Positions 7,281 through 51,935 are shown, counted from the first letter of the stretch. The stretch: DNA of 64,000 nucleotides from Trypanosoma brucei (GCA_000002445.1 CP000067.1:480001-544000), one strand, 5' to 3'. Numbers and translations are program-made. Notes: generated by a model from the letters alone, not told the origin.

Positions 7281-9356
7281 TTAGCCAGTGCCAGCAGCGG
7301 CCGCACGACGTTTCCGCAACCTCTTCATGATTCTGAGAATAATGCGAATTATGAGCGGGTTCTCATCATCTGCACCGGATTCTTCAACATCAAAGAGCCG
7401 CTTAGTCGAACGGACCACGCCCCCTGCCACAATGGCAGAGAATATGAGACCCAGCGTTACGACGTTGAAAACCATAGCGGGATCCGGTACGGGTAAAGTC
7501 GACCCCGCCACATTGCTGCACCGCAACCAAAAGTAACAGACACAAGGACCTTTTCTGTTGTTGTCGCGCCGCATACTCTCCATTAGTGACTCCAGTGATC
7601 CCTGGTGGTCGATGCGCTTGTTAGAGATTGAGGCGCAACGTGACATCCCACAGTTTTGGGCTCCAGACGCCTTGTCCCCTTCTCCTACCTTTCCACCCGC
7701 TGAACACACGTGCCGTCCAACACGAATGACGGGTTGTGGAAGAATGCGGTTGCTGTTGGCATCAGGGGGCATATCTTTGTTTGCGGACCATCCGAACCGG
7801 AAAGGAAATTCACAGAGCACAAATCCATTACTTTGCACCCCTGCTTCAAGTGGCCGCATGGCAGTTTCTGTCACAGTAGTGTGAACGAGAACAACCAATA
7901 CGTTGGCGCTTTCATCGACAAAAGCATTTTCTACCCTTGACTCCAACCCCGCACCCGCCCGCATCTCGTGGAGAGACGGACGCATCAAATGCAAAGGGAA
8001 GAAAAGAAGGGCCTCTAACGTGTCCCCCGGTTGCAACATAAGCGACTGTTCGTGACGGCTTTTGGTGTTTGAGTTACCTGATGTGGGCACTTCAGGCGTT
8101 GGATTCACCACCAACCTGTACGTGCCACGGTCATACCCGACGGCAGAAATGAAGTGCTGAGCAGTAGGTGTCACCTCCACATTGCCTAGCGCTTGATTGT
8201 CGTTACCACTTCGGGCCCCTTGGATTTTTTTCAGGGTTTGCAGAGCCGAACTGAGCTTAGCGTTCAACTGAGAACCCGTAATGAAGTCAACACTGGGAGC
8301 ATACTCGGGAAAAGACTCTTTCCAGTGGGAAGAAAGTGCATCGAACTTTTTATTCTGTTCAACGAAAGCCATACGCATCACAAGCTTAATCTCGGCTTCC
8401 TCATTTGTGTGGTTACCCCTGGCCTCACCCCCTTCAGTGGTGGGTGATTGCTTCACCTCGAAACGGAAGTGGTGAAATACGGAGGAAAAGAAGTCTTCCA
8501 TAGAAACGAGTCCCGCCCGGAATATACCCCGAGGGATGCGTTCTTCCACGTCTTTGCCTGAGCGACCACCATTCAGCAGGGCTGTTACATGCTGCGTGCA
8601 AAGTGTATCCTGCTGGGCATGGTGATACGAACACCAGCGAACGTCCCCAAACTTACCAGAGTATCCCGAAGAGGCGAAAACGGAATTACCCGCGGGAACC
8701 GAATGGAGCGCCCCAATCGGTCGAACAAAACGTGGTGTGTCGTCCCACCAGGTAAGCGGGGATGAAAGTAGTGACGAGACAAACTGTGCCAACCATTGAT
8801 GGTGGTGACGCAAATCCTCCTCACCTGCACTCGTCGCGTTACCATCATTATTCCCGTTTGAGCTCGTGCTGACCCACCCACACGCAGATAGAGTGGACTG
8901 GGAACAAACAGAGTGATGTGAGAGGTCGTGAATCAGCTCTGCTGTGCTCTTGTCAACAGGGTGCTTTCGGTTATGTAAAGTAGACGTCCACTCAGGCCGC
9001 CACGAGCCACCACAACCAGACCATTCAATCAAATCGAAGCGCCGTCGCCGTAAGACGTGTACCCAAAACGGGTCTAGCTCTTCATTGAAACTTAAGTGTT
9101 CTTCCCTATCCTCAGCAGAACCCTTCGGAAGCCATAATGAAGTGGTCATAGTTAGGGAAACAAGTGTGGATTCCAGGCCATCGTCGTCAAGACCTGTTGT
9201 CAGCGGTTGCACATGCACCGTGTATCGCCTTTCTGTCCTCGGAACAGTGGGCTTCAGCGCTTGTGTGCGTGTTGTTACACACAAAAGGAACAACAGGGCT
9301 GCCACTACCACCATGGCCCGGTGGCACGGCACTCGCTTCATTCTCTCAATTACCAC
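7281..9356 (-). CDS. hypothetical type I membrane or secreted-pathway protein (N-terminal signal peptide, one C-terminal TM helix, basic cytoplasmic tail)
   Basis: 691 aa ORF. The hydrophobic stretch MVVVAALLFLLCVTTRTQA sits just after the start. The C-terminal segment MVFNVVTLGLIFSAIVAGGVV is followed by an RKRR-rich tail. No family recognised. The true start may be the internal Met MKRVPC. Confidence 0.6.
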   Translation of the reverse strand: MVIERMKRVPCHRAMVVVAALLFLLCVTTRTQALKPTVPRTERRYTVHVQPLTTGLDDDGLESTLVSLTMTTSLWLPKGSAEDREEHLSFNEELDPFWVHVLRRRRFDLIEWSGCGGSWRPEWTSTLHNRKHPVDKSTAELIHDLSHHSVCSQSTLSACGWVSTSSNGNNDGNATSAGEEDLRHHHQWLAQFVSSLLSSPLTWWDDTPRFVRPIGALHSVPAGNSVFASSGYSGKFGDVRWCSYHHAQQDTLCTQHVTALLNGGRSGKDVEERIPRGIFRAGLVSMEDFFSSVFHHFRFEVKQSPTTEGGEARGNHTNEEAEIKLVMRMAFVEQNKKFDALSSHWKESFPEYAPSVDFITGSQLNAKLSSALQTLKKIQGARSGNDNQALGNVEVTPTAQHFISAVGYDRGTYRLVVNPTPEVPTSGNSNTKSRHEQSLMLQPGDTLEALLFFPLHLMRPSLHEMRAGAGLESRVENAFVDESANVLVVLVHTTVTETAMRPLEAGVQSNGFVLCEFPFRFGWSANKDMPPDANSNRILPQPVIRVGRHVCSAGGKVGEGDKASGAQNCGMSRCASISNKRIDHQGSLESLMESMRRDNNRKGPCVCYFWLRCSNVAGSTLPVPDPAMVFNVVTLGLIFSAIVAGGVVRSTKRLFDVEESGADDENPLIIRIILRIMKRLRKRRAAAAGTG

Positions 9357-9606
9357 CGCCTGGTCCTTTTACCTAATGGTTTCGATTGTACCTTCTTTTA
9401 TTACTTACACCGTGCTTATATTATCCCCTTTCGGTTATGCTCACGTGTTGAAATCTTCAGTAGTTGGGACGATAACAGTAAAGGGAAGGGAAACGGGGAT
9501 TTGAAAAAGAAAAATAGATGTCTTTTGTGTTCTCAACACAAAATTTGAAGCAAGAACGAAACCTCACGTCGCTGGCAGAAAGGTGAGGATACAGAAAACC
9601 ATCTCT

Positions 9607-9795
9607 CCGCTTGATTGGAATTCCCGGGTAGTGACGGTTGGGATCCCCAACAAAAGCAGCACACGACTCTCTCATTCGCACTATCTCAACACCGTGCCTG
9701 CACCATGGAGCATTATGTCCAAATACTCCACCGTGGCACTAACGCGTCCCGCCACTCATATAAAAACAAATGCAGCTGTGATACGCAGCGGTGAG
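9607..9795 (+). repeat. dispersed 190 bp element, copy 1 (100% identical to 51740..51935)
   Basis: The string cgcttgattggaattcccgggtagtgacggttgggatcccc...gctgtgatacgcagcggtga occurs at both loci. The flanks are unrelated on both sides. Confidence 0.9.
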
Positions 9796-10447
9796 GAAAA
9801 TGTCACATGGAGCCAACAATTTCACTGCCCTCCTCCATTCCCAATTTCACCGTCTTTTCCCCACATTAGCATATACCTCATGCCATACATAACCCCTTGA
9901 AGACCCCCCCTCCCCTCCTCCAAAAAAATAATAATAACAATAACAATAATGATCCAGCAACCCTCCGCCTCAGAAAAGAGAAGCATACAAGGGAACGATC
10001 AAGCACTCGCATAATCATCCAGAAAAATAATAACTAGCGCCGTACGCTCCCACCTGTGTCAATCACTTCGATCCTTTAGCCCTGCTCGGGGGACTTGCAT
10101 AACCACTACTACTGCCATTACCTTAGCACTAGTAACGAAAAGATATAGAAAGGCAAGAGAAAGAGGAGGAAGTACCAATAGGAGGGGCAAATCAAAGTTG
10201 ATTGCGTTAAATTACTTAGCCGCAAAAAGCACGGCCACTTTCACCTTCCAACAAGAAAATTTACTATTTCCTTAGAGTGCGACAGGGAGCATACCTCGTA
10301 CACCCACCTTTTCTGTTTTTTTTCTTCCTCCTTCCTTCCTCCTCCCACACACATTCCGGGTCTTCGGATGAACCTTATGCGCAACGTTCGTCCACCAGGT
10401 CCCACTTAGTTTAACCGCATCCAATGTTGCTCGTGCTCCCGTGTCAC

Positions 10448-11272
10448 TCAGTTGCGCTGTTTCGCACCTTCGGGAAGAGCACGTACAATATGCATAACCG
10501 TGTTCTTAAAGCGTGCAACACCTTTTGTCCTGCTGAGGCACCGCTCAGCCTGCTCGGGTGTTTCGAATGTGATGAAGGCAAAGCCCCTGTAGTTGGATGT
10601 TTTACCATCAGTTGGCAAGAAGAGCTTATCGATGCGGTACTCATCCGTGTTGAAGATGTTATATAGCTCCTCTCGCGAAATATCATCCGAAATGTTCGTG
10701 ATGCGCAAGCGGCGGTCGGTATCCTCCTTGTGCTGAACGGAAGTTTTGTCTCCTCTCGCTGCCGCCCACGTGCGTTCCTTCCCCTGGTCATCAGGTGCGG
10801 CGGCCTCCTTAGCAGCCCGCTCCTGCTCCTCCTTAACCTTCGCGTACCGCGCGAGATGGACATCCTTAACCTCCACAGTATAGCGCTCGACTTCATTCAT
10901 GAGACGCATAACCTCCTCCCGTGCCATGCGCTCGAATGGATCAACTTCACCTAACTCCAGCACAATTGGGGGATCCCGGGACACGAGATCCTTTTGGTCT
11001 GCAGGATTTGTAGCCCTCCCAAAACGCTTCCACTTGGCGCGGACATCCACTGGAGTGGCCTCACGATCCACACGATATTGGAGCACTCTCTTTACAATTT
11101 CGTACTGCTTATTCTCAGCATCGGTGATGGTCTCAGTGACTACCTTAGCATTCTTCCACGCCGCCTCCTTATCTGCTAGTGCTTTCGCCTCTTGTGGCGT
11201 CAACTGGTTTCCCCCAAAGTCCTCACCGAGGGCAATGGGCTCCATATCATCGGCCCATGTTGCCATCTTCAA
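10448..11272 (-). CDS. EIF3G: translation initiation factor eIF3 subunit g-like protein (C-terminal RRM)
   Basis: 274 aa. The C-terminal RRM with RNP motifs (TDRRLRITNISDDISREELYNIF ... RGFAFITFETPEQAERCL) aligns by eye with the eIF3g RRM (TDRIRVTNLSEDTRETDL ... KGFAFISF). The N-terminal part (KQYEIVKRVLQYRV...AKWKRFG) resembles the eIF3g KIVRTFRIETRK...NWKKFG region. The size matches yeast Tif35. Confidence 0.65.
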   Translation of the reverse strand: MKMATWADDMEPIALGEDFGGNQLTPQEAKALADKEAAWKNAKVVTETITDAENKQYEIVKRVLQYRVDREATPVDVRAKWKRFGRATNPADQKDLVSRDPPIVLELGEVDPFERMAREEVMRLMNEVERYTVEVKDVHLARYAKVKEEQERAAKEAAAPDDQGKERTWAAARGDKTSVQHKEDTDRRLRITNISDDISREELYNIFNTDEYRIDKLFLPTDGKTSNYRGFAFITFETPEQAERCLSRTKGVARFKNTVMHIVRALPEGAKQRN

Positions 11273-11859
11273 AGTGTTTTTTTTTTTTTGGTGGTTGAGC
11301 CCCTTACTTTATTTACCTGGATTTTACTGGGATTCAAACGAAACAACACGCACAAGTCTCACTCTCCTGCAACTGCGAACACAAACGAAAGGTGGTTATT
11401 AGATACAAAAAAAAAGTGTGGGTGGTATAAACAATGGGTAGTGAGGAAACGTCTCCTCGCATGGCAACAACGCGAATAGGTATCGCGGGTGCTGAAGTTC
11501 GTTGATAATTCGGTCTACTGAACAGGTTGCCCTAAGGATATTGCGATTGGGAATTTTTACTTCACAAGAAAGTAATTGGTAATGCCACACGCCATGGTGT
11601 GGGAATAGCAGGTTTGACAAAGGTATATGGCAGACAGAAGACGAGTTGCGGGTCAAAACCGGCCACACAGTGCTGTGGTGTTTTATATGTTGCCACGCCA
11701 ACTCAACATCAACACCGTTTTCGTCCCAAGACACACAAGGAAGAGAAAGGAAAACATACCTCCACCACGTAAGACTGCCATCAACCTCCCACACACACAA
11801 AAAAAAACTCCAACCATTCCGTTCTCCACTTCCAAAGTTCACGACAAATAGAATTGCTT

Positions 11860-31106: not shown

Positions 31107-31150
31107 CGTCAGCTTGTGCTTGAAAATACAGGTTTACCTTGGTGAGTTAT
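30690..31150. repeat. ALBA paralogue identity tract, copy A (Alba-domain coding sequence + about 45 bp of 5' UTR)
   Basis: Near-100% nucleotide identity with 32850..33305 (for example ggggagcggggcctggtaaccaatgtggttcacatccagcggcttcaacgacagcgtaataagaatcgttgaaactttccgctccacctcc in both). Identity ends where the RGG tail and 3' flank begin. Confidence 0.9.
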
Positions 31151-33261: not shown

Positions 33262-33305
33262 CGTCAGCTTGTGCTTGAAAATACAAGTTTATGTTGGTAA
33301 GTCCT
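32850..33305. repeat. ALBA paralogue identity tract, copy B
   Basis: See copy A. The upstream motif catcgtcagcttgtgcttgaaaataca(a/g)gttta is shared. Confidence 0.9.
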
Positions 33306-37254: not shown

Positions 37255-40200
37255 CTACGCCTCATTTCCACGCAGTTCTTCACGAAGAGCTTTAACCTCA
37301 TCCTCTAGTCTCTTTATAACTAAGTCATTACACTTTCTCAGCTCCTCTTGAGACTCCACATAATACTTCATCGTCTCCTCCTGAACCCTTATAGACTCTC
37401 TCAGCTTTAGCACCCTCTTGGCCAGGACAGAACAAAGATGGCAATCATTAACATCGGACAGACTTGAAAGAAGAGAAGAACCTTCAAAAGCATCACCACT
37501 TCCACCACGATACGAAACACACAAAGACCCACAATCATCATTTATTTTGGACACAACAGCATCATCTTCTTCACAACGAGAAGCGGCAAGAGCCGAAGAA
37601 AGAGGAAAGCCAACTTCCTCCTTCACCTTAAGTGGGGGCACACAGGTACCCGCATCACCACCAGCACCCTCCGTGGCACCCCTTCGGTCGAGGTCAACTC
37701 CACCACCAAACAGGGAATTACTGCCATCCACAGGGCAAAGAACATTACTAGAAATCGCACCTCCAACGTTACCAGATTTTAAAAACACCACATCATGATC
37801 ATCGGAAACGACTCGACAACCCATAACTCTAAGAGCATCAGCAACACAATGACCAACTGTTTTTTCACAAAGAAAAGCACTATCCTTAGAAACCTTAACA
37901 TTCATATTATCCACAGTAGAATACGCAAAATCATTCACAGCACTCCCACAAACATTGGTACATTGCAGAGCTTCATACTTTTCATTCAAAGCCCGTAATG
38001 ATTTAAGTTCATCCTCCATGGCAGAATTCGAACGCCTCGCAGCTTCATACTGTTCATTCAAGGACCGTAATGATTTAAGTTCATCCTCCATTGCAGTATT
38101 ACTACGTTGTAGAGTTTCATACTGTTCATTCAAAGCTCGCAATGATTTAAGTTCATCCTCCATGTCAGAATTCGAACGTCTCGCAGCTTCATACTGTTCA
38201 TTCAAAGCTCGCAATGATTTAAGTTCATCCTCCATGGCAGAATTCGAACGCCTCGCAGCTTCATACTGTTCATTCAAGGACCGTAATGATTTAAGTTCAT
38301 CCTCCATGGCAGTATTACTACGTTGTAGAGTTTCATACTGTTCATTCAAAGCTCGCAATGATTTAAGTTCATCCTCCATGTCAGAATTCGAACGTCTCAC
38401 AGCTTCATACTGTTCATTCGCAGCTCGCAATGAATCAAGTTCTTCCTCCATGGCAGCATTGGTACGTTGCAGAGTTTCATACTGTTCATTCAAAGCTCGC
38501 AATGAATCAAGTTCTTCCTCCATGGCAGCATTGGTACGTTGAAGAGTTTCATACTGTTCATTCAAAGCTCGCAATGAATCAAGTTCATCCTCCATGGCAG
38601 CATTGGTACGTTGCAGAGTTTCATACTGTTCATTCAAAGCTCGCAATGAATCAAGTTCATCTTCCATGGCAGCATTGGTACGTTGCAGAGTTTCATACTG
38701 TTCATTCAAAGCTCGCAATGAATCAAGTTCATCTTCCATGGCAGCATTTAAATGCCGAAGTTCCTCAAGCTCCTCATTCACGGCCTTCTCTTCTTTAGAT
38801 TGCTCTCTTATACCCTCATCAAGTTCCTCAAGTCGGCTGAGATGTCGTTGAAGTGTTGATTCTTCTGTGGTTTCATGAGCTCCGCCAGCGGTGCCGCTAT
38901 TGTTAGCAGGCTTTTTATACTCCTCCATGACGCAATTGATTATTTCCCTTGATTTCTCCTTGATAAATTCGCAACGATATTCTGCCACTTCCTTGAGTCG
39001 TTCAATCTCCTTTAACTTCCTCTCTAGGTTGAGAATCTGCCCGGTCATTGTACTTATAACGTTCCCACTTTCATTGCATTCCCTCTTAAATTCCCTATAG
39101 ACGTTCAAGATATCTAGATCCTCAGCAACAACATCTCGCAATGAATCAAGTTCTTCCTCCATGGCAGCATTAGTACGCTGCAGAGTTTCATACTGTTCAT
39201 TCACAGCTCGCAATGAATCAAGTTCATCCTCCATAGCAGCATTAGTACGTTGCAGAGTTTCATACTGTTCATTCAAAGCTCGCAATGAATCAAGTTCTTC
39301 CTCCATGGCAGCATTGGCACGCTGCAGAGTTTCATACTGTTCATTCAAAGCTCGCAATGAATCAAGTTCTTCCTCCATGGCAGCATTAGTACGTTGCAGA
39401 GTTTCATACTCAGCAACAACATCTCGCAATGAATCGAGTTCATCCTCCATGGCAGCATTGGTACGTTGCAGAGTTTCATACTGTTCATTCACAGCTCGCA
39501 ATGAATCAAGTTCATCCTCCATGGCAGCATTGGTACGTTGCAGAGTTTCATACTGTTCATTCAAAGCTCGCAATGAATCAAGTTCTTCCTCCATGGCAGC
39601 ATTGGCACGCTGCAGAGTTTCATACTGTTCATTCACAGCTCGCAATGAATCAAGTTCATCCTCCATAGCAGCATTAGTACGTTGCAGAGTTTCATACTGT
39701 TCATTCACAGCTCGCAATGAATCAAGTTCATCTTCCATGGCAGCATTGGTACGTTGCAGAGTTTCATACTGTTCATTCACAGCTCGCAATGAATCAAGTT
39801 CATCCTCCATGGCAGCATTGGTACGTTGCAGAGTTTCATACTGTTCATTCAAAGCTCGCAATGAATCAAGTTCATCTTCCATGGCAGCATTAGTACGCTG
39901 CAGAGTTTCATACTGTTCATTCACAGCTCGCAATGAATCAAGTTCATCTTCCATGGCAGCATTGGCACGCTGCAGAGTTTCATACTGTTCATTCAAAGCT
40001 CGCAATGAATCAAGTTCATCCCCCATGGCAGCATTTAAATGCCGAAGTTCCTCAAGCTCCTCATTCACGGCCTTCTCTTCTTTAGATTGCTCTCTTATAC
40101 CCTCATCAAGTTCCTCAAGTCGGCTGAGATGTCGTTGAAGTGTTGATTCTTCTGTGGTTTCATGAGCTCCGCCAGCGGTGCCGCTATTGTTAGCAGGCTT

Positions 40201-43200
40201 TTTATACTCCTCCATGACGCAATTGATTATTTCCCTTGATTTCTCCTTGATAAATTCGCAACGATATTCTGCCACTTCCTTGAGTCGTTCAATCTCCTTT
40301 AACTTCCTCTCTAGGTTGAGAATCTGCCCGGTCATTGTACTTATAACGTTCCCACTTTCATTGCATTCCCTCTTAAATTCCCTATAGACGTTCAAGATAT
40401 CTAGATCCTCAGCAACAACATCTCGCAATGAATCGAGTTCTTCCTCCATGGCAGCATTAGTACGCTGCAGAGTTTCATACTGTTCATTCACAGCTCGCAA
40501 TGAATCAAGTTCATCCTCCATAGCAGCATTAGTACGTTGCAGAGTTTCATACTGTTCATTCAAAGCTCGCAATGAATCAAGTTCATCCTCCATGGCAGCA
40601 TTGGCACGCTGCAGAGTTTCATACTGTTCATTCAAAGCTCGCAATGAATCAAGTTCTTCCTCCATGGCAGCATTAGTACGTTGCAGAGTTTCATACTGTT
40701 CATTCAAAGCTCGCAATGAATCAAGTTCTTCCTCCATGGCAGCATGAGTACGTTGCAGAGTTTCATACTGTTCATTCAAAGCTCGCAATGAATCAAGTTC
40801 TTCCTCCATGGCAGCATGAGTACGTTGCAGAGTTTCATACTGTTCATTCAAAGCTCGCAATGAATCAAGTTCATCCTCCATAGCAGCGTTGGCACGCTGC
40901 AGAGTTTCATACTGTTCATTCACAGCTCGCAATGAATCAAGTTCATCTTCCATGGCAGCATTGGTACGTTGCAGAGTTTCATACTGTTCATTCACAGCTC
41001 GCAATGAATCAAGTTCATCCTCCATGGCAGCATTGGTACGTTGCAGAGTTTCATACTGTTCATTCACAGCTCGTAATGAATCAAGTTCATCTTCCATGGC
41101 AGCATTGGTACGTTGCAGAGTTTCATACTGTTCATTCAAAGCTCGCAATGAATCAAGTTCATCTTCCATGGCAGCATTTAAATGCCGAAGTTCCTCAAGC
41201 TCCTCATTCACGGCCTTCTCTTCTTTAGATTGCTCTCTTATACCCTCATCAAGTTCCTCAAGTCGGCTGAGATGTCGTTGAAGTGTTGATTCTTCTGTGG
41301 TTTCATGAGCTCCGCCAGCGGTGCCGCTATTGTTAGCAGGCTTTTTATACTCCTCCATGACGCAATTGATTATTTCCCTTGATTTCTCCTTGATAAATTC
41401 GCAACGATATTCTGCCACTTCCTTGAGTCGTTCAATCTCCTTTAACTTCCTCTCTAGGTTGAGAATCTGCCCGGTCATTGTACTTATAACGTTCCCACTT
41501 TCATTGCATTCCCTCTTAAATTCCCTATAGACGTTCAAGATATCTAGATCCTCAGCAACAACATCTCGCAATGAATCGAGTTCTTCCTCCATGGCAGCAT
41601 TAGTACGCTGCAGAGTTTCATACTGTTCATTCACAGCTCGCAATGAATCAAGTTCATCCTCCATAGCAGCATTAGTACGTTGCAGAGTTTCATACTGTTC
41701 ATTCAAAGCTCGCAATGAATCAAGTTCATCCTCCATGGCAGCATTGGCACGCTGCAGAGTTTCATACTGTTCATTCAAAGCTCGCAATGAATCAAGTTCT
41801 TCCTCCATGGCAGCATTAGTACGTTGCAGAGTTTCATACTGTTCATTCAAAGCTCGCAATGAATCAAGTTCTTCCTCCATGGCAGCATTAGTACGTTGCA
41901 GAGTTTCATACTGTTCATTCAAAGCTCGCAATGAATCAAGTTCTTCCTCCATGGCAGCATGAGTACGTTGCAGAGTTTCATACTGTTCATTCAAAGCTCG
42001 CAATGAATCAAGTTCTTCCTCCATGGCAGCATGAGTACGTTGCAGAGTTTCATACTGTTCATTCAAAGCTCGCAATGAATCAAGTTCTTCCTCCATGGCA
42101 GCATTAGTACGTTGCAGAGTTTCATACTGTTCATTCAAAGCTCGCAATGAATCAAGTTCATCCTCCATAGCAGCGTTGGCACGCTGCAGAGTTTCATACT
42201 GTTCATTCACAGCTCGCAATGAATCAAGTTCATCTTCCATGGCAGCATTGGTACGTTGCAGAGTTTCATACTGTTCATTCACAGCTCGCAATGAATCAAG
42301 TTCATCCTCCATGGCAGCATTGGTACGTTGCAGAGTTTCATACTGTTCATTCACAGCTCGTAATGAATCAAGTTCATCTTCCATGGCAGCATTGGTACGT
42401 TGCAGAGTTTCATACTGTTCATTCAAAGCTCGCAATGAATCAAGTTCATCTTCCATGGCAGCATTTAAATGCCGAAGTTCCTCAAGCTCCTCATTCACGG
42501 CCTTCTCTTCTTTAGATTGCTCTCTTATACCCTCATCAAGTTCCTCAAGTCGGCTGAGATGTCGTTGAAGTGTTGATTCTTCTGTGGTTTCATGAGCTCC
42601 GCCAGCGGTGCCGCTATTGTTAGCAGGCTTTTTATACTCCTCCATGACGCAATTGATTATTTCCCTTGATTTCTCCTTGATAAATTCGCAACGATATTCT
42701 GCCACTTCCTTGAGTCGTTCAATCTCCTTTAACTTCCTCTCTAGGTTGAGAATCTGCCCGGTCATTGTACTTATAACGTTCCCACTTTCATTGCATTCCC
42801 TCTTAAATTCCCTATAGACGTTCAAGATATCTAGATCCTCAGCAACAACATCTCGCAATGAATCGAGTTCTTCCTCCATGGCAGCATTAGTACGCTGCAG
42901 AGTTTCATACTGTTCATTCACAGCTCGCAATGAATCAAGTTCATCCTCCATAGCAGCATTAGTACGTTGCAGAGTTTCATACTGTTCATTCAAAGCTCGC
43001 AATGAATCAAGTTCATCCTCCATGGCAGCATTGGCACGCTGCAGAGTTTCATACTGTTCATTCAAAGCTCGCAATGAATCAAGTTCTTCCTCCATGGCAG
43101 CATTAGTACGTTGCAGAGTTTCATACTGTTCATTCAAAGCTCGCAATGAATCAAGTTCTTCCTCCATGGCAGCATTAGTACGTTGCAGAGTTTCATACTG

Positions 43201-46200
43201 TTCATTCAAAGCTCGCAATGAATCAAGTTCTTCCTCCATGGCAGCATGAGTACGTTGCAGAGTTTCATACTGTTCATTCAAAGCTCGCAATGAATCAAGT
43301 TCTTCCTCCATGGCAGCATGAGTACGTTGCAGAGTTTCATACTGTTCATTCAAAGCTCGCAATGAATCAAGTTCTTCCTCCATGGCAGCATTAGTACGTT
43401 GCAGAGTTTCATACTGTTCATTCAAAGCTCGCAATGAATCAAGTTCATCCTCCATAGCAGCGTTGGCACGCTGCAGAGTTTCATACTGTTCATTCACAGC
43501 TCGCAATGAATCAAGTTCATCTTCCATGGCAGCATTGGTACGTTGCAGAGTTTCATACTGTTCATTCACAGCTCGCAATGAATCAAGTTCATCCTCCATG
43601 GCAGCATTGGTACGTTGCAGAGTTTCATACTGTTCATTCACAGCTCGTAATGAATCAAGTTCATCTTCCATGGCAGCATTGGTACGTTGCAGAGTTTCAT
43701 ACTGTTCATTCAAAGCTCGCAATGAATCAAGTTCATCTTCCATGGCAGCATTTAAATGCCGAAGTTCCTCAAGCTCCTCATTCACGGCCTTCTCTTCTTT
43801 AGATTGCTCTCTTATACCCTCATCAAGTTCCTCAAGTCGGCTGAGATGTCGTTGAAGTGTTGATTCTTCTGTGGTTTCATGAGCTCCGCCAGCGGTGCCG
43901 CTATTGTTAGCAGGCTTTTTATACTCCTCCATGACGCAATTGATTATTTCCCTTGATTTCTCCTTGATAAATTCGCAACGATATTCTGCCACTTCCTTGA
44001 GTCGTTCAATCTCCTTTAACTTCCTCTCTAGGTTGAGAATCTGCCCGGTCATTGTACTTATAACGTTCCCACTTTCATTGCATTCCCTCTTAAATTCCCT
44101 ATAGACGTTCAAGATATCTAGATCCTCAGCAACAACATCTCGCAATGAATCGAGTTCTTCCTCCATGGCAGCATTAGTACGCTGCAGAGTTTCATACTGT
44201 TCATTCACAGCTCGCAATGAATCAAGTTCATCTTCCATGGCAGCATTGGTACGTTGCAGAGTTTCATACTGTTCATTCAAAGCTCGCAATGAATCAAGTT
44301 CTTCCTCCATGGCAGCATTAGTACGTTGAAGAGTTTCATACTGTTCATTCGCAGCTCGCAATGAATCAAGTTCATCTTCCATGGCAGCATTGGTACGTTG
44401 CAGAGTTTCGTACTGTTCATTCGCAGCTCGCAATGAATCAAGTTCATCTTCCATGGCAGCATTAGTACGTTGCAGAGTTTCATACTGTTCATTCAAAGCT
44501 CGCAATGAATCAAGTTCTTCCTCCATGGCAGCATTAGTACGTTGAAGAGTTTCATACTGTTCATTCGCAGCTCGCAATGAATCAAGTTCTTCCTCCATGG
44601 CAGCATTGGTACGTTGCAGAGTTTCGTACTGTTCATTCACAGCTCGCAATGAATCAAGTTCTTCCTCCATGGCAGCATTAGTACGTTGCAGAGTTTCATA
44701 CTGTTCATTCGCAGCTCGCAATGAATCAAGTTCTTCCTCCATGGCAGCATTAGTACGTTGCAGAGTTTCATACTGTTCATTCGCAGCTCGCAATGAATCA
44801 AGTTCTTCCTCCATGGCAGCATTGGCACGCTGCAGAGTTTCATACTGTTCATTCGCAGCTCGCAATGAATCAAGTTCATCTTCCATGGCAGCATTGGTAC
44901 GTTGCAGAGTTTCATACTGTTCATTCAAAGCTCGCAATGAATCAAGTTCTTCCTCCATGGCAGCATTAGTACGTTGCAGAGTTTCATACTGTTCATTCAA
45001 AGCTCGCAGCGAATCAAGTTCATCCTCCATAGCAGCATTGGTACGTTGTAGAGCTTCATACTGTTCATTCACAGCTCGCAGCGAATCAAGTTCTTCCTCC
45101 ATGGCAGCATTAGTACGTTGTAGAGTTTCATACTGTTCATTCACAGCTCGCAGCGAATCAAGTTCATCCTCCATAGCAGCATTGGTACGTTGTAGAGCTT
45201 CATACTGTTCATTCACAGCTCTCAGTGAATCAAGTTCTTCCTCCATGGCAGCATTGGTACGTTGTAGAGCTTCATACTGTTCATTCACAGCTCTCAGTGA
45301 ATCAAGTTCTTCCTCCATGGCAGCATTAGTACGTTGTAGAGTTTCATACTGTTCATTCACAGCTCGCAATGAATCAAGTTCTTCCTCCATGGCAGCATTG
45401 GTACGTTGCAGAGTTTCATACTGTTCATTCACAGCTCTCAATGAATCAAGTTCATCCTCCATGGCAGCATTGGTACGTTGCAGAGTTTCATACTGTTCAT
45501 TCAAAGCTCGCAATGAATCAAGTTCTTCCTCCATGGCAGCATTAGTACGTTGCAGAGTTTCATACTGTTCATTCAAAGCTCGCAGCGAATCAAGTTCATC
45601 CTCCATAGCAGCATTGGTACGTTGTAGAGCTTCATACTGTTCATTCACAGCTCGCAGCGAATCAAGTTCTTCCTCCATGGCAGCATTAGTACGTTGTAGA
45701 GTTTCATACTGTTCATTCACAGCTCGCAGCGAATCAAGTTCATCCTCCATAGCAGCATTGGTACGTTGTAGAGCTTCATACTGTTCATTCACAGCTCTCA
45801 GTGAATCAAGTTCTTCCTCCATGGCAGCATTGGTACGTTGTAGAGCTTCATACTGTTCATTCACAGCTCTCAGTGAATCAAGTTCTTCCTCCATGGCAGC
45901 ATTAGTACGTTGTAGAGTTTCATACTGTTCATTCACAGCTCGCAATGAATCAAGTTCTTCCTCCATGGCAGCATTGGTACGTTGCAGAGTTTCATACTGT
46001 TCATTCACAGCTCTCAATGAATCAAGTTCATCCTCCATGGCAGCATTGGTACGTTGCAGAGTTTCATACTGTTCATTCACAGCTCGCAATGAATCAAGTT
46101 CATCCTCCATGGCAGCATGAGTACGTTGCAGAGTTTCATACTGTTCATTCACAGCTCGCAATGAATCAAGTTCATCCTCCATGGCAGCATTGGTACGTTG

Positions 46201-49200
46201 CAGAGTTTCATACTGTTCATTCAAAGCTCGTAATGAATCAAGTTCTTCCTCCATGGCAGCATTAGTACGTTGTAGAGTTTCATACTGTTCATTCACAGCT
46301 CGCAATGAATCAAGTTCATCCTCCATAGCAGCATTGGTACGTTGCAGAGTTTCATACTGTTCATTCAAAGCTCGTAATGAATCAAGTTCTTCCTCCATGG
46401 CAGCATTAGTACGTTGAAGAGTTTCATACTGTTCATTCGCAGCTCGTAACGAATCAAGTTCATCCTCCATGGCAGCATTGGTACGTTGCAGAGTTTCATA
46501 CTGTTCCTTCAAAGCTCTCAGTGAATCAAGTTCATCCTCCATGGCAGCATTAGTACGTTGCAGAGTTTCATACTGTTCATTCGCAGCTCTCAGTGAATCA
46601 AGTTCATCCTCCATGGCAGCATTAGTACGTTGAAGAGTTTCATACTGTTCATTCAAAGCTCTCAGTGAATCAAGTTCATCCTCCATGGCAGCATGAGTAC
46701 GTTGAAGAGTTTCATACTGTTCATTCGCAGCTCTCAGTGAATCAAGTTCTTCCTCCATGGCAGCATTAGTACGTTGAAGAGTTTCATACTGTTCATTCAA
46801 AGCTCGCAATGAATCAAGTTCATCTTCCATAACAGCATTAGTACGTTGCAGAGTTTCATACTGCTCATTCAAAGCTCTCAGTGAATCAAGTTCTTCCTCC
46901 ATGGCAGCATTAGTACGTTGAAGAGTTTCATACTGTTCATTCGCAGCTCTCAGTGAATCAAGTTCTTCCTCCATGGCAGCATTAGTACGTTGTAGAGTTT
47001 CATACTGTTCATTCGCAGCTCTCAGTGAATCAAGTTCATTCTGTATTTTATCGTTTGTTGTTCTATCTTCTTTCAGTTGCTTTGGTGTAGCTTGCAGTGG
47101 TTGTTGTTCAATAGCTACTCTGGTGTCTTTATTGCTGTCTTCTTTATACTGTTCATTCAAAGCTCTCAGTGAATCGAGTTCATTTATTATATCTTCGTTG
47201 GTGCGGCGGAGATTTTCATATTGTTCATTCACAGCTCTCAGTGAATCAAGTTCTTCCTCCATGTTGGGGTCGAAGTGCCGCGTGCTTCTTCCTCTTTTTT
47301 TTAATGCCCGTAAATACTCGAGTTGAGCTTCTACTTCGGCATTCAGTTGCTGAAGTATTTTGTACTCTTCTGTGTATTTTCTTTTTTCTGCTATATCGCG
47401 TTCATCGTCAATAATCTTCTCTTTTGTGTTTTTTTCCTGTTTTTTCAGTATACGATGCGTAGGTTGATCTTTTTCGGCACTTATGTTTACATGCTGCAGA
47501 GTTTCACACTGTTCTTTGAAAGCTCGTAACAACTTAAGCTCATTCCCCATATCCTCATTTGTCCGTCTTGCTGCTTTAAGTTCCTTTTGAACGACCCACA
47601 GTGGTTGGTTGCCAACTCCAATATCAGCAGTGGTACGTTGCAGAGCTTCATACTGTTCATTCGCAGCTCGTAACGAATCAAGTTCATCCTCCATGGCAGC
47701 ATTGGTACGTTGCATAGCTTCATACTGTTCATTCACAGCTCGCAATGAATCAAGTTCATCCTCCATAGCAGCATTGGTACGTTGCATAGCTTCATACTGT
47801 TCATTCACAGCTCTCAATGAATCAAGTTCATCCTCTATGGCAGCATTGGTACGTTGCATAGCTTCATACTGTTCATTCACAGCTCTCAATGAATCAAGTT
47901 CATCCTCTATGGCAGCATTGGTACGTTGCATAGCTTCATACTGTTCATTCACAGCTCGCAACGAATCAAGTTCATCCTCCATGGCAGCATTGGTACGTTG
48001 CAGAGTTTCATACTGTTCATTCACAGCTCGCAATGAATCAAGTTCATCCTCCATAGCAGCATTGGTACGTTGCATAGCTTCATACTGTTCATTCACAGCT
48101 CTCAATGAATCAAGTTCATCCTCCATGGCAGCATTGGTACGTTGCAGAGTTTCATACTGTTCATTCAAAGCTCGCAATGAATCAAGTTCTTCCTCCATGG
48201 CAGCATTAGTACGTTGCAGAGTTTCATACTGTTCATTCACAGCTCGTAATGAATCAAGTTCATCCTCTATGGCAGCATTGGTACGTTGCATAGCTTCATA
48301 CTGTTCATTCACAGCTCTCAATGAATCAAGTTCATCCTCTATGGCAGCATTGGTACGTTGCGCGGTATCTTTGTTGACTGTGCTTTCAATGGAAATTATA
48401 CGCTGTTGTTGTTGCTGAGACTGGCTCTCTACGTCAGCGGCAAACTCTGTACAACATTGAGTTGGGTTTGACTCCTTCGTTTTTTTTATTTTTGGGGATG
48501 GCTGTTGTTTTTTGCTTCTTTTATGTGGTGTTTGGTCGGCTTTATACTTTGTTAACTTGAGGTGCTCTCGGGCCTCCTTACTGTCCGCTTGTGTTTTGCG
48601 TACTTTATGTGTTTTATCCTTTTCCTCTCTGCTTATTTTTGTTGCTACTTCTTTTTTACTCTTTTTGTGATCAACTGCCGTTCGTGCGGTAAGCTTTTTT
48701 GTAGTGCGTGCCCCTTCTTCCCTATCGCTTGTGACTGAATTGCTGCTAATGTTTGCTGCTGATGGCAACCTCTTTAGTATTTCTCCCCCCTCGTTTGTGT
48801 ATGTCTTGTCTTCATTTTCTTTGGGGAGGTGTGTGTCACTCTGGGAACGAGGGGAATCTGTGTGCTCTTGTGCTTCTGAAGAAATTATAGCTGTCCCCTT
48901 CCCTTTCTTCTTCGCTGCAGTTGCTTTGGTGGATGTCTTGGATAAACGTGACTGCTTACCGGTATCGTGATCCCCAGTAGCGTCGACATCCGTATTAGCT
49001 GCTGCCGTGTGTGTGTCTTTTGTATTTGTTACCCGACTGTGCGCTGACCGAGCCGCGTCGCTTTGCGAAAACCCGCACATCCCCTTGTCATCCTTTTCCT
49101 CATCAGCCGTAACAACCAGGGGGCCGTGCCGACCTGTGTGAATCGCTGCATTGGTGGACTTTCTTTCCTGATCGGGGACCATCCCGTGTCGGTCGTCCAA

Positions 49201-50622
49201 TCCCTCCTCCATACTGTTTCTCTCCTCCAGGAACCGTTGGAGTTCGATTGTATGCTTGAAGCTCCCTTCAGAACAAGGAAGTTGGTTATGTTGCGTGGAA
49301 ACATCCTCTCCTTGTGTAGCGACCAATAAACCTCCTTCATCGATAGCGTTTTGCAGCTTCTTTATTATTCCCTCCAACATATCATTGGTCCTTTGAAGCT
49401 CCTCAAGGGAATGGATCAACTCGCCCTGTCGCCTCGCAGACTCTTCCTCCGCCTTCTGAGCCTCTTCCAACTGGCCTCGGAGGACTTTGTTCTCTCTCTC
49501 ACAAATAGCCAACTGTTGCAGAAGCGTTCTGTTTTCACTCCGAATGTTCTCCATTTCTGTTCGAAGTTCAGCCGCATCCTTCTCCACAACCTTTATTCGT
49601 TCGTCCTCGTCGACACTGTGCTGACCACGTTCTAACGAAGCGTCACTGCACGCTCCCACAACATCCGGCTTACTAGAAGACAAGCCCACCTTGTTTTTGG
49701 AATTCACATACTTGAGGCTGTCGGATTGCAACGTGATGTACCTCCACAGCTCTGACCGGTGAATTGTCGCTATTTTGGGGATGCTGCCTTCTATCAACGC
49801 TGTCGGGATGATAGAAGATCGAAGAATGGTTTTCTCTGGCATCGGTAGGTCATCGAGGGCGTTCCCCCCTTCAACCGCCGCAAGACGATCCTGAATATCC
49901 CTGATAGCAAGGACAATACGTTCCAGATGTTCTTGGGAAGATGCAGCTAGCGTAGTGGCTGCCACATGGTTATGATTCACGTAGTTTAGCTGAGCCTTCA
50001 CCCATTGATGGAGTGGCCCCGCAGCACGTGACGCCACCGAAGCATCGTCGTCGCTGATATCGTTGCTCCTGCAGCGCTTGATGATCTCGTTTCGGCGCTC
50101 GGGAGGCAGCTTTGAAGGGTCAAAACTGAGGACACGTGCTATAAAGCCCGGTTGCCTGAGTTGTGCGCGCAGCTCAGCCCAAGTAGAGGTGGGTAAAGTG
50201 ATACCCAATATAATGAGAATGTCATCCAATATTTTCCTTACAATGGGCGGTGGTGACACATATGACTGAAGCTCTCGGAAGCAAGCACCTTCGATTCCTT
50301 CAACCATGGTGTTAGCACGCTCAACTTGGATTCTCAACGATGCGATACGCTCCTCCTCAACGGCTGCTCTTCCATTCCGTAGTTGTTGGCGTAGTGCAAG
50401 CAGTTGCTCTTTATATGCGGTTGCCCTCTCATCCACGTCTTGTGAAGGGCTATTGTTTGCTACGGAAACACGAGCCACATAATCGGAAAGAAATGTTACA
50501 TACCCCTTCTCGTAGCACCAAGAATCGTCTCTCAGCGTATCAAACGCAACTAAGTCACCGACAGAGACGACATCAGATTTCACTTGAGATAATACTGATT
50601 CATCAAACTCCAAGATCTCCAT
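37255..50622 (-). CDS. giant repetitive coiled-coil protein, 4455 aa. It has a unique N-terminal domain and a basic K/S/T-rich region, then about 120 copies of a 23-aa repeat (EELDSLRALNEQYETLQRTNAAM) with five interspersed 130-aa modules. Possibly a cytoskeletal / flagellum-attachment-zone type repetitive antigen.
   Basis: Single uninterrupted 13.4 kb ORF. The 69 bp period is visible directly in the DNA. All other frames give only the short periodic artefact ORFs listed in the track. From memory, T. brucei has an 'antigenic protein, putative' next to CC2D. Confidence 0.85.
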   Translation of the reverse strand: MEILEFDESVLSQVKSDVVSVGDLVAFDTLRDDSWCYEKGYVTFLSDYVARVSVANNSPSQDVDERATAYKEQLLALRQQLRNGRAAVEEERIASLRIQVERANTMVEGIEGACFRELQSYVSPPPIVRKILDDILIILGITLPTSTWAELRAQLRQPGFIARVLSFDPSKLPPERRNEIIKRCRSNDISDDDASVASRAAGPLHQWVKAQLNYVNHNHVAATTLAASSQEHLERIVLAIRDIQDRLAAVEGGNALDDLPMPEKTILRSSIIPTALIEGSIPKIATIHRSELWRYITLQSDSLKYVNSKNKVGLSSSKPDVVGACSDASLERGQHSVDEDERIKVVEKDAAELRTEMENIRSENRTLLQQLAICERENKVLRGQLEEAQKAEEESARRQGELIHSLEELQRTNDMLEGIIKKLQNAIDEGGLLVATQGEDVSTQHNQLPCSEGSFKHTIELQRFLEERNSMEEGLDDRHGMVPDQERKSTNAAIHTGRHGPLVVTADEEKDDKGMCGFSQSDAARSAHSRVTNTKDTHTAAANTDVDATGDHDTGKQSRLSKTSTKATAAKKKGKGTAIISSEAQEHTDSPRSQSDTHLPKENEDKTYTNEGGEILKRLPSAANISSNSVTSDREEGARTTKKLTARTAVDHKKSKKEVATKISREEKDKTHKVRKTQADSKEAREHLKLTKYKADQTPHKRSKKQQPSPKIKKTKESNPTQCCTEFAADVESQSQQQQQRIISIESTVNKDTAQRTNAAIEDELDSLRAVNEQYEAMQRTNAAIEDELDSLRAVNEQYETLQRTNAAMEEELDSLRALNEQYETLQRTNAAMEDELDSLRAVNEQYEAMQRTNAAMEDELDSLRAVNEQYETLQRTNAAMEDELDSLRAVNEQYEAMQRTNAAIEDELDSLRAVNEQYEAMQRTNAAIEDELDSLRAVNEQYEAMQRTNAAMEDELDSLRAVNEQYEAMQRTNAAMEDELDSLRAANEQYEALQRTTADIGVGNQPLWVVQKELKAARRTNEDMGNELKLLRAFKEQCETLQHVNISAEKDQPTHRILKKQEKNTKEKIIDDERDIAEKRKYTEEYKILQQLNAEVEAQLEYLRALKKRGRSTRHFDPNMEEELDSLRAVNEQYENLRRTNEDIINELDSLRALNEQYKEDSNKDTRVAIEQQPLQATPKQLKEDRTTNDKIQNELDSLRAANEQYETLQRTNAAMEEELDSLRAANEQYETLQRTNAAMEEELDSLRALNEQYETLQRTNAVMEDELDSLRALNEQYETLQRTNAAMEEELDSLRAANEQYETLQRTHAAMEDELDSLRALNEQYETLQRTNAAMEDELDSLRAANEQYETLQRTNAAMEDELDSLRALKEQYETLQRTNAAMEDELDSLRAANEQYETLQRTNAAMEEELDSLRALNEQYETLQRTNAAMEDELDSLRAVNEQYETLQRTNAAMEEELDSLRALNEQYETLQRTNAAMEDELDSLRAVNEQYETLQRTHAAMEDELDSLRAVNEQYETLQRTNAAMEDELDSLRAVNEQYETLQRTNAAMEEELDSLRAVNEQYETLQRTNAAMEEELDSLRAVNEQYEALQRTNAAMEEELDSLRAVNEQYEALQRTNAAMEDELDSLRAVNEQYETLQRTNAAMEEELDSLRAVNEQYEALQRTNAAMEDELDSLRALNEQYETLQRTNAAMEEELDSLRALNEQYETLQRTNAAMEDELDSLRAVNEQYETLQRTNAAMEEELDSLRAVNEQYETLQRTNAAMEEELDSLRAVNEQYEALQRTNAAMEEELDSLRAVNEQYEALQRTNAAMEDELDSLRAVNEQYETLQRTNAAMEEELDSLRAVNEQYEALQRTNAAMEDELDSLRALNEQYETLQRTNAAMEEELDSLRALNEQYETLQRTNAAMEDELDSLRAANEQYETLQRANAAMEEELDSLRAANEQYETLQRTNAAMEEELDSLRAANEQYETLQRTNAAMEEELDSLRAVNEQYETLQRTNAAMEEELDSLRAANEQYETLQRTNAAMEEELDSLRALNEQYETLQRTNAAMEDELDSLRAANEQYETLQRTNAAMEDELDSLRAANEQYETLQRTNAAMEEELDSLRALNEQYETLQRTNAAMEDELDSLRAVNEQYETLQRTNAAMEEELDSLRDVVAEDLDILNVYREFKRECNESGNVISTMTGQILNLERKLKEIERLKEVAEYRCEFIKEKSREIINCVMEEYKKPANNSGTAGGAHETTEESTLQRHLSRLEELDEGIREQSKEEKAVNEELEELRHLNAAMEDELDSLRALNEQYETLQRTNAAMEDELDSLRAVNEQYETLQRTNAAMEDELDSLRAVNEQYETLQRTNAAMEDELDSLRAVNEQYETLQRANAAMEDELDSLRALNEQYETLQRTNAAMEEELDSLRALNEQYETLQRTHAAMEEELDSLRALNEQYETLQRTHAAMEEELDSLRALNEQYETLQRTNAAMEEELDSLRALNEQYETLQRTNAAMEEELDSLRALNEQYETLQRANAAMEDELDSLRALNEQYETLQRTNAAMEDELDSLRAVNEQYETLQRTNAAMEEELDSLRDVVAEDLDILNVYREFKRECNESGNVISTMTGQILNLERKLKEIERLKEVAEYRCEFIKEKSREIINCVMEEYKKPANNSGTAGGAHETTEESTLQRHLSRLEELDEGIREQSKEEKAVNEELEELRHLNAAMEDELDSLRALNEQYETLQRTNAAMEDELDSLRAVNEQYETLQRTNAAMEDELDSLRAVNEQYETLQRTNAAMEDELDSLRAVNEQYETLQRANAAMEDELDSLRALNEQYETLQRTNAAMEEELDSLRALNEQYETLQRTHAAMEEELDSLRALNEQYETLQRTHAAMEEELDSLRALNEQYETLQRTNAAMEEELDSLRALNEQYETLQRTNAAMEEELDSLRALNEQYETLQRANAAMEDELDSLRALNEQYETLQRTNAAMEDELDSLRAVNEQYETLQRTNAAMEEELDSLRDVVAEDLDILNVYREFKRECNESGNVISTMTGQILNLERKLKEIERLKEVAEYRCEFIKEKSREIINCVMEEYKKPANNSGTAGGAHETTEESTLQRHLSRLEELDEGIREQSKEEKAVNEELEELRHLNAAMEDELDSLRALNEQYETLQRTNAAMEDELDSLRAVNEQYETLQRTNAAMEDELDSLRAVNEQYETLQRTNAAMEDELDSLRAVNEQYETLQRANAAMEDELDSLRALNEQYETLQRTHAAMEEELDSLRALNEQYETLQRTHAAMEEELDSLRALNEQYETLQRTNAAMEEELDSLRALNEQYETLQRANAAMEDELDSLRALNEQYETLQRTNAAMEDELDSLRAVNEQYETLQRTNAAMEEELDSLRDVVAEDLDILNVYREFKRECNESGNVISTMTGQILNLERKLKEIERLKEVAEYRCEFIKEKSREIINCVMEEYKKPANNSGTAGGAHETTEESTLQRHLSRLEELDEGIREQSKEEKAVNEELEELRHLNAAMGDELDSLRALNEQYETLQRANAAMEDELDSLRAVNEQYETLQRTNAAMEDELDSLRALNEQYETLQRTNAAMEDELDSLRAVNEQYETLQRTNAAMEDELDSLRAVNEQYETLQRTNAAMEDELDSLRAVNEQYETLQRANAAMEEELDSLRALNEQYETLQRTNAAMEDELDSLRAVNEQYETLQRTNAAMEDELDSLRDVVAEYETLQRTNAAMEEELDSLRALNEQYETLQRANAAMEEELDSLRALNEQYETLQRTNAAMEDELDSLRAVNEQYETLQRTNAAMEEELDSLRDVVAEDLDILNVYREFKRECNESGNVISTMTGQILNLERKLKEIERLKEVAEYRCEFIKEKSREIINCVMEEYKKPANNSGTAGGAHETTEESTLQRHLSRLEELDEGIREQSKEEKAVNEELEELRHLNAAMEDELDSLRALNEQYETLQRTNAAMEDELDSLRALNEQYETLQRTNAAMEDELDSLRALNEQYETLQRTNAAMEEELDSLRALNEQYETLQRTNAAMEEELDSLRAANEQYEAVRRSNSDMEDELKSLRALNEQYETLQRSNTAMEDELKSLRSLNEQYEAARRSNSAMEDELKSLRALNEQYEAARRSNSDMEDELKSLRALNEQYETLQRSNTAMEDELKSLRSLNEQYEAARRSNSAMEDELKSLRALNEKYEALQCTNVCGSAVNDFAYSTVDNMNVKVSKDSAFLCEKTVGHCVADALRVMGCRVVSDDHDVVFLKSGNVGGAISSNVLCPVDGSNSLFGGGVDLDRRGATEGAGGDAGTCVPPLKVKEEVGFPLSSALAASRCEEDDAVVSKINDDCGSLCVSYRGGSGDAFEGSSLLSSLSDVNDCHLCSVLAKRVLKLRESIRVQEETMKYYVESQEELRKCNDLVIKRLEDEVKALREELRGNEA
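37960..48400. repeat. in-frame tandem array of 69 bp units (about 120 copies) inside the giant CDS, with sequence subtypes
   Basis: Direct reading: ...gcagcattggtacgttgcagagtttcatactgttcattcaaagctcgcaatgaatcaagttcatcctccatg... recurs every 69 nt. Variants (caatgaatc / cagcgaatc / cagtgaatc; tcaaagc / tcacagc / tcgcagc) mark subtypes. Confidence 0.95.
38740..44140. repeat. five near-identical higher-order repeat units (about 1287 bp; one about 1143 bp), each holding a 393 bp non-69mer module plus about 13 69-bp units
   Basis: The identical 69-aa artefact ORFs (MPLLLAGFLYSSMTQLIISLDF...) start at 38891, 40178, 41321, 42608 and 43895. Spacings are 1287, 1143, 1287 and 1287 bp, and the surrounding DNA is essentially identical. 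Confidence 0.9.
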
Positions 50623-51739: not shown

Positions 51740-51935
51740 GCTTGATTGGAATTCCCGGGTAGTGACGGTTGGGATCCCCAACAAAAGCAGCACACGACTC
51801 TCTCATTCGCACTATCTCAACACCGTGCCTGCACCATGGAGCATTATGTCCAAATACTCCACCGTGGCACTAACGCGTCCCGCCACTCATATAAAAACAA
51901 ATGCAGCTGTGATACGCAGCGGTGACGATTCTCAA
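51740..51935 (+). repeat. dispersed 190 bp element, copy 2
   Basis: Identical to 9607..9795, same orientation, in the spacer between the giant gene and the CC2D-like gene. A C11 homopolymer lies directly upstream. Confidence 0.9.

Follow-up and report, generated by a model that had tools for sequence, protein, structure and literature searches.

Short non-coding repeats in the spacers or 3'UTRs of trypanosomatid genes are represented by the retroposons TbRIME, TbSIDER1 and TbSIDER2 and by the SIDERs of Leishmania, the last of which act as 3'UTR regulatory modules. TbRIME is 500 bp long and about 4% diverged, TbSIDER1 and TbSIDER2 are 571-573 bp long and about 16% diverged, and ingi and DIRE elements are about 5 kb (PMC3820030). 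All elements of the ingi clade carry the Pr77 hallmark of 76-79 nt at their 5' end. Multi-copy identical non-coding sequences are also found among the snoRNA genes of trypanosomes, including snoRNAs embedded in lncRNAs (grumpy/snoGRUMPY), which have Pol II polycistronic or lncRNA precursors. The novel transcripts catalogued by Kolev et al. [quoted passage not shown] Finally, templated insertions or patch duplications of the SDSA, MMEJ/TMEJ and MMBIR types give blocks of a few hundred bp with a nearby source on the same chromosome, sharp ends and 0-2 nt of microhomology, and with neither target-site duplication nor A-tail.

Here a block that occurs twice on chromosome 4 of Trypanosoma brucei TREU927 is compared with these systems. 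The sequence analysed, referred to below as the window, is a stretch of 64 kb (chromosome 4, 480001-544000), and window coordinates equal the chr4 coordinate minus 480000, as derived from published gene coordinates. The block resembles TbRIME, TbSIDER1/2 and the Leishmania SIDERs in being a short non-coding repeat in a spacer or 3'UTR, the snoRNA genes in the identity of its copies, the Kolev transcripts in that both copies lie inside two of them, and templated insertions in its size, the closeness of the two sites on one chromosome and the anatomy of its ends.

Extent, identity and boundaries of the block

Comparison of the two sites revealed an exact direct repeat of 187 nt at 9608-9794 (copy 1, chr4 489608-489794) and 51739-51925 (copy 2, chr4 531739-531925), with an offset of 42131. 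The preliminary description had placed a block of 190 bp with 100% identity at 9607-9795 and 51740-51935; the identity, the places and the common orientation of the copies are borne out by the exact repeat, whereas the length is 187 nt and the ends given were off by 1-10 nt, the second copy having been extended 10 nt too far. Judged from the sequence, an exact match of 187 nt cannot be of chance origin. The flanks had been described as unrelated on both sides, and this holds: their ungapped identity is 15-28%, and local gapped alignment of flanks of +/-150 and +/-400 nt scores at the level of shuffled sequences. A gene-conversion tract inside an older duplication with hidden flank homology was rejected because the flank alignments are no better than shuffles.

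Self-BLAST of the window after masking of its large tandem array identified two dispersed repeats, namely the block (100%) and the paralogues ALBA3 and ALBA4 (94%). The latter, ALBA4 (Tb927.4.2030, 30655-31147) and ALBA3 (Tb927.4.2040, 32807-33302), share 94% identity over 499 nt, and a further novel transcript, Tb4.NT.14, lies between them. Weaker or partial copies of the block were found neither in the 64 kb nor in the loci fetched from other genomes, where matches are 16 nt or shorter; the sequence searched, window and fetched loci, shows the block at two sites only.

The boundaries of both copies are sharp. Neither copy is adjoined by a run of at least seven A or T, the nearest being A7 at 9922. 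No target-site duplication was found at either copy, and the longest sequence shared at the junctions is a 2-nt CG, present at the block start and in the right flank of copy 2. The absence of a target-site duplication and of a poly(A) tail noted in the preliminary description thus stands.

An internal palindrome had also been reported. GGAATTCC is indeed present in the block, together with five more 6-bp palindromes, giving six in 187 nt (GAATTC, CCCGGG, GGATCC, CCATGG, ACGCGT and CAGCTG; about 2.8 expected), and GGAATTCC and GGGATCCC are both among them. GAATTC, CCCGGG and GGATCC lie within 40 nt of each other at the block 5' end and have the look of an EcoRI-SmaI-BamHI polylinker. BLASTN of the block against plasmids and an exact 32-mer scan of metagenome contigs both returned no match; a vector or other foreign origin was ruled out on these grounds and because natural isolates carry the block.

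A polymorphic run rich in G and C lies 12 nt from copy 2 (51707-51727, plus strand); it reads CCGGGGAGCGGGGGGGGGGGAAC on the sense strand of TREU927 and CCGGGGAAC in T. b. equiperdum and T. b. gambiense DAL972, so that a 14-nt indel lies directly beside copy 2. In T. equiperdum OVI, the same G/C-rich run corresponds to a C-run ahead of an assembly gap. This fragile homopolymer could mark an old break site.

Gene setting of the two copies

Eight ORF products of the window correspond residue for residue to the TREU927 proteins AAZ10784-AAZ10799. Copy 1 is located between Tb927.4.1930, which is known from the literature as eIF3g, an RRM protein of 272 aa (CDS 10448-11266, chr4 490448-491266), and Tb927.4.1920, known as GPI16, a subunit of the GPI transamidase (7281..9454, CDS 7281-9341, SL acceptors at 9423 and 9454, i.e. 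chr4 489423/489454). The short mRNA of Tb927.4.1930 extends over 10258..11372 (491372-490258), with the major poly(A) site about 185 nt past the stop codon. Copy 2 is located between Tb927.4.2080, known as CC2D, a flagellum attachment zone protein (CDS 52617-55337, short mRNA 52182..55378, i.e. 535378-532182), and Tb927.4.2070 (37255..50993, CDS 37255-50622, SL acceptor at 50993, i.e. 530993), a repetitive 'antigenic protein' of 4455 aa that was identified by the match of a published tagging primer to its C-terminus. Tb927.4.2070 is built from a 72-nt (24-aa) repeat that is organised into higher-order units of about 1287 nt each, and the length of the gene either is polymorphic or depends on the assembly.

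The genes surrounding both copies are all encoded on the minus strand, in a single transcription unit that starts at Tb927.4.2080. Copy 2 therein occupies the first spacer, and copy 1 lies 42 kb inside the unit. The earlier statement that both copies lie between minus-strand genes agrees with the ORFs on either side of both sites, but the plus orientation that it gave to the element does not describe the biologically relevant, transcribed strand. As the genes are all minus-strand, the block is transcribed as the reverse complement of the sequence first described. Table S14 of Kolev et al. lists Tb927.4.2080 as the gene that opens the minus-strand unit and Tb927.4.2100 as the start of the plus-strand unit (PMC2936537); the region from 55378 to the right end of the window at 64000 is therefore a divergent strand-switch and Pol II start region.

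Spacer RNAs that carry the block

The spacers around the two copies are not silent, a point missed in the preliminary description, and give rise to trans-spliced and polyadenylated RNAs. On the published coordinates (Tables S7/S12 of Kolev et al. 2010, PMC2936537; all RNA data are used as published), each copy is enclosed by one catalogued novel transcript. Copy 1 is transcribed in sense from the minus strand as nt 335-521 of Tb4.NT.13 (9583..10128, 490128 to 489583, minus strand), an RNA of 545 nt and 0.57 molecules per cell with its acceptor at 10128 and its poly(A) site at 9583, only 25 nt beyond the block. Copy 2 is likewise transcribed in sense from the minus strand, as nt 169-355 of Tb4.NT.16 (51143..52093, 532093 to 531143, minus strand), an RNA of 950 nt and 0.99 molecules per cell with its acceptor at 52093. 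Both RNAs have the properties of Kolev-type novel or UTR-internal transcripts, i.e. an SL acceptor with polyY-AG, a poly(A) site and no overlap with an annotated ORF; the polypyrimidine tract and AG are visible in the sequence directly upstream of 10128 and of 52093. The carrier RNAs are thus already catalogued, whereas the shared block is new relative to the main texts of the searchable literature, in which neither the block sequence nor the names Tb4.NT.13 and Tb4.NT.16 occur.

The 3' ends of the two RNAs are located 130-150 nt upstream of the acceptor of the next gene (150 nt for Tb4.NT.16). Coupling of a polyadenylation site to downstream trans-splicing is the usual arrangement and fits both 3' ends, and the 3' end of Tb4.NT.13 is set by the splice signal of GPI16. 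Since the ends of both RNAs are explained by signals in the unique flanks, the block, which accounts for neither their 5' nor their 3' ends, is not needed for their processing. Its relative position also differs between the two RNAs (nt 335-521 of 545 against nt 169-355 of 950).

Copy 1 is found 654-840 nt past the eIF3g stop codon and, given that the major poly(A) site is only about 185 nt past it, is outside the main eIF3g mRNA. Both Tb927.4.1930 and Tb927.4.2080 are included in the list of 394 genes with 'alt 3UTR' (Kolev et al. 2010, PMC2936537), and it follows that long 3'UTR isoforms of eIF3g and CC2D would run through copy 1 and copy 2, respectively.

An independent set of published RNA and ribosome profiling data (Vasquez et al. 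2014, PMC3973304) supports expression of both RNAs and gives 30.7 and 24.3 RPKM for Tb4.NT.13 in bloodstream and procyclic forms, with footprints of about 4 in each, and 52.3 and 17.9 RPKM for Tb4.NT.16, with footprints of 29.8 and 1.6. RNA reads cover 97-99% of both RNAs in bloodstream forms, and footprints cover just 17-29% of each (about 20% for Tb4.NT.16) (PMC3973304). For Tb4.NT.16 the two footprint values differ about 19-fold, that of bloodstream forms being the higher. There is also a low-complexity tract in Tb4.NT.13, a (TTATT)n or T-run at 9925-9950 (minus-sense nt about 180-205), where Logan short-read contigs bearing eIF3g end; for those bearing GPI16 the end point is an A/G heterozygous site, located about 95 nt upstream of the GPI16 ATG, so that neither set of contigs extends as far as the block.

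Coding potential and small RNA genes

The plus strand of the block contains a 59-codon stop-to-stop frame (9612-9794 and 51743-51925), which runs from a TGA 4 nt inside the block to a TGA at its last base, and a second plus-strand frame is open across the whole block. These open frames are probably a by-product of T-poor composition. A chimeric query that joined every open stretch from the six frames gave no hit at E<=0.01 among 5.8 billion proteins. The annotated T. brucei proteomes are part of this set, so the block is unlikely to have arisen recently from an annotated coding gene. For Tb4.NT.13 and Tb4.NT.16, Ericson et al. 2014 give only theoretical ORFs, one of them starting inside the block (MRESCAAFVGDPNRHYPGIPIK...). 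The sense ORFs that start in the block (MRESCAAFVG...) run on into different flanks in the two RNAs, and no translation evidence was found for an ORF starting in the block. A coding reading was rejected, as the plus-strand frames are antisense to transcription and have no homologue, and the sense ORFs are theoretical only and run on into unrelated flanks. Tb4.NT.16 also contains an ORF of 68 aa (MQGTLPLLFVCTTLSVRADSS...; 51847-52050, minus strand, nt 44-250 of the RNA), which begins near the RNA 5' end with a signal-peptide-like N-terminus and stops 26 codons inside the block.

A small ncRNA family had been among the candidate explanations. In the form of a stand-alone gene, snoRNA-like or other, such a family would have two copies processed from the polycistronic precursor; in trypanosomes, Pol II precursors and lncRNAs give rise to snoRNAs by processing, and multicopy small-RNA genes typically have perfectly identical copies. 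A stable hairpin at sense nt 56-101 of the block points the same way, but it is perfect, with no internal loop or pseudouridylation pocket. The D box motif CUGA is absent from both strands of the block, so that there is no C/D box pair, as the preliminary description had already observed. Rfam gave no match at the gathering score in the whole window and none in the block even at E<=10; ARAGORN found no tRNA genes in the window, and no Rfam tRNA match is present in the block at E<=10, which leaves the block with no tRNA-type Pol III companion gene. The folding energies of the two strands are indistinguishable from those of dinucleotide shuffles (z = +0.39 and -0.28). Unlike trypanosome snoRNA genes, then, the block has no box motifs, no Rfam match, no structure signal and none of the tandem clustering usual for these genes. 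The candidate is unsupported by these results, and a stand-alone ncRNA gene is very improbable.

Presence and variation in other strains

The syntenic loci of T. b. gambiense DAL972, T. b. equiperdum (PacBio, GCA_003543875.1) and T. equiperdum OVI were compared with those of TREU927. Copies 1 and 2 are present at the same sites and are 100% identical in DAL972 and in T. b. equiperdum GCA_003543875.1, and copy 1 of T. equiperdum OVI is also 100% identical. The distance between the copies varies, being 42.1 kb in TREU927, 35.0 kb in T. b. equiperdum and, with N-gaps in the interval, 89.8 kb in DAL972. No empty-site allele, i.e. a locus without the block, was found among the four genomes.

Absence of the block from other isolates, which the preliminary description had linked with an assembly artefact, is ruled out by the presence of both copies in DAL972 and the PacBio T. 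b. equiperdum assembly. An artefact of assembly or gap filling in the reference could be suspected from OVI, in which site 2 is a scaffold gap of 128 N (L002 13413-13540, CZPT02001151.1) corresponding to window 51720-51925. This gap comprises copy 2 plus 19 nt, and its right edge falls precisely on the block boundary, its left edge at the C-homopolymer. A gap of this kind is the expected product of an unresolved two-copy repeat (187 bp) that, together with the homopolymer, broke the short-read assembly. Since both copies are identical in the independent Sanger (DAL972) and PacBio (GCA_003543875.1) assemblies, the repeat is not an assembly artefact, and an error in the reference is scarcely credible.

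In the syntenic spacer of T. vivax the block is absent, and no part of that spacer aligns with the T. brucei spacer. With nothing alignable, this comparison argues only against an RNA gene of deep conservation.

SNP content was assessed in two alignments, one covering about 20 kb at the copy 1 locus (four genomes) and the other about 14 kb at the copy 2 locus (three genomes). At the copy 1 locus, 2.1% of non-coding and 0.66% of coding sites are variable, and 5.2% of the 187-nt non-coding windows are free of SNPs; at the copy 2 locus the corresponding values are 1.3%, 0.36% and 10.4%. The block itself has no SNP at copy 1 (four genomes) or at copy 2 (three genomes). The joint empirical chance of a SNP-free block at both loci is about 0.5%, assuming that the loci are independent. 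A neutral patch predating the strain split should show 2-4 SNPs per locus, and gene conversion between the copies would not erase differences between strains. The SNP-free status is a modest hint of constraint, coming from 3-4 closely related genomes and two windows.

The main rival to a passenger patch duplication is that the block is a selected RNA module of 187 nt, acting in cis or trans, for example as a platform for RNA-binding proteins, in the long 3'UTRs of eIF3g and CC2D and in both spacer RNAs, and is kept by purifying selection. Its complete lack of SNPs against 1.3-2.1% variable sites in neighbouring non-coding sequence is in keeping with such a module. Both copies are also in sense orientation in transcripts of one class (distal 3'UTR or 'alt 3UTR'), both parent genes are on the 394-gene list, and expression of both RNAs is seen in procyclic as well as in bloodstream forms, with almost full read coverage in the latter. 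However, no thermodynamic structure signal is present, a homologue was found nowhere, leaving no covariation to assess, the carrier RNAs are rare (one per cell or fewer), the position of the block within the RNA is not conserved, and the SNP test is confined to the few closely related genomes and two windows named above. A selected module is therefore a tentative possibility, though one to be kept in mind. The stronger proposal that the block is a conserved functional RNA domain of two unrelated lncRNA or long-3'UTR transcripts, recruiting a common RNA-binding factor or pairing with a common target, is more doubtful and would be somewhat surprising.

A cis-regulatory or chromatin element had been the third candidate explanation, and the lack of SNPs is the one finding in its favour. 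For a DNA-level cis element that acts in protein binding, chromatin or replication independently of transcription, the six 6-bp palindromes, GGAATTCC and GGGATCCC included, could be read in the same way. The palindrome excess is weak, however, and the two copies have no chromosomal context in common, one being near the start of the transcription unit and the other 42 kb inside it. No sequence-specific element of such a kind is known in T. brucei, which also counts against this explanation, and a DNA element is considered even less probable than a stand-alone ncRNA gene.

Relationship to mobile elements

A retroposon fragment had been proposed as another candidate. The start motif of Pr77 (CCCTGGC...) was taken from the L1Tc primer sequence (PMC4748587), and neither CCCTGG nor CCAGGG is present in the block, in agreement with the earlier remark that the conserved 5' signature of retroposons is missing. 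The sole occurrence of either motif within about 1 kb of the two copies, at 10782, is inside the eIF3g CDS and unrelated. Unlike ingi-clade retroposons, the block lacks Pr77, an A-rich tail and a TSD; unlike TbRIME and TbSIDER, in a comparison made by published descriptions, it is 187 bp long and 0% diverged rather than 500-573 bp and 4-16%. With size and divergence both unlike RIME/TbSIDER, the candidate finds no support, and none of the three candidates first put forward is positively borne out.

The two copies might still belong to an unrecognised dispersed family with further members in the rest of the 26-Mb core genome or in the subtelomeres, whether a non-autonomous element or a fragment associated with ingi, DIRE or RHS. 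The copy number given here applies just to the window and the orthologous loci, and the OVI short-read assembly broke exactly at copy 2, as repeats cause; the same assembly, on the other hand, runs straight through copy 1. Beyond the missing Pr77 motif, A-tail and TSD, and the lengths of TbRIME (500 bp) and of TbSIDER1/2 (about 571 bp, about 16% diverged), independent truncated insertions would not have both end points in common. Further, the 64 kb and the fetched loci contain only matches of 16 nt or less, and no frame of the block is similar to annotated trypanosome proteins. Membership of a dispersed family is thus judged to be unlikely.

Origin of the block

The reading that best accommodates these observations is that the block is a two-copy patch duplication at the DNA level, a transcribed passenger in distal 3'UTR and spacer RNAs rather than a gene or a mobile element, and in our estimation this is evenly balanced between being right and being wrong. 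A 187-bp piece of one chromosome 4 spacer would have been copied into another about 42 kb away, in the same orientation, at a time when the T. brucei subspecies sampled had not yet separated. As we infer from the anatomy, the likely route would be templated repair or template switching of the SDSA, MMEJ or MMBIR type, since such repair may leave blunt junctions or junctions with 0-2 nt of microhomology and neither target-site duplication nor A-tail. Both copies lie in the distal part of long spacers with an extra polypyrimidine-AG acceptor, and the block is thus transcribed in sense inside Tb4.NT.13 and Tb4.NT.16, as it would be in the long 3'UTR isoforms of eIF3g and CC2D, a passenger probably with no function of its own.

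DNA-level copying is favoured over retroposition or a gene family because of the sharp ends, the microhomology of 2 nt or less, the location of both copies on the same chromosome in the same orientation, the lack of a tail, and the restriction of the block to two copies in the sequence searched. T. brucei, which is not known to have classical NHEJ, repairs breaks by homologous recombination and MMEJ, and a repair-patch route is therefore plausible. The passenger reading is the most likely one because signals in the flanks explain the RNA ends and because the position of the block differs between the RNAs; it is supported too by the rarity of both carrier RNAs (0.57 and 0.99 per cell) and their poor coverage by footprints.

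Several observations count against the patch duplication. The block has fewer SNPs than a purely neutral templated patch predicts, with none in either copy (joint chance about 0.5%). Both copies have the same orientation relative to transcription, and the junction microhomology is at most 2 nt. Random placement would also be unlikely to put both copies downstream of genes from the 'alt 3UTR' list of 394, though long spacers are favoured targets.

Implications

If the block is a mere repair patch, it would be a natural example of templated ectopic copying in an organism without classical end joining. Reads from the block map twice, so that quantification of Tb4.NT.13, Tb4.NT.16 and the long eIF3g and CC2D isoforms is affected, and the block breaks short-read assemblies, as in OVI. 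Gene regulation in trypanosomes is almost wholly post-transcriptional, and functions are known for very few lncRNAs. Were selection the cause of the missing SNPs, the block would stand as a rare instance in which two trypanosome spacer RNAs have a defined sequence module in common. Should it prove to be a conserved functional RNA domain, it would be without precedent in T. brucei spacer RNAs as a modular regulatory domain carried by a repeat, and a functional analogue of the Leishmania SIDER 3'UTR modules that arose without retroposition.
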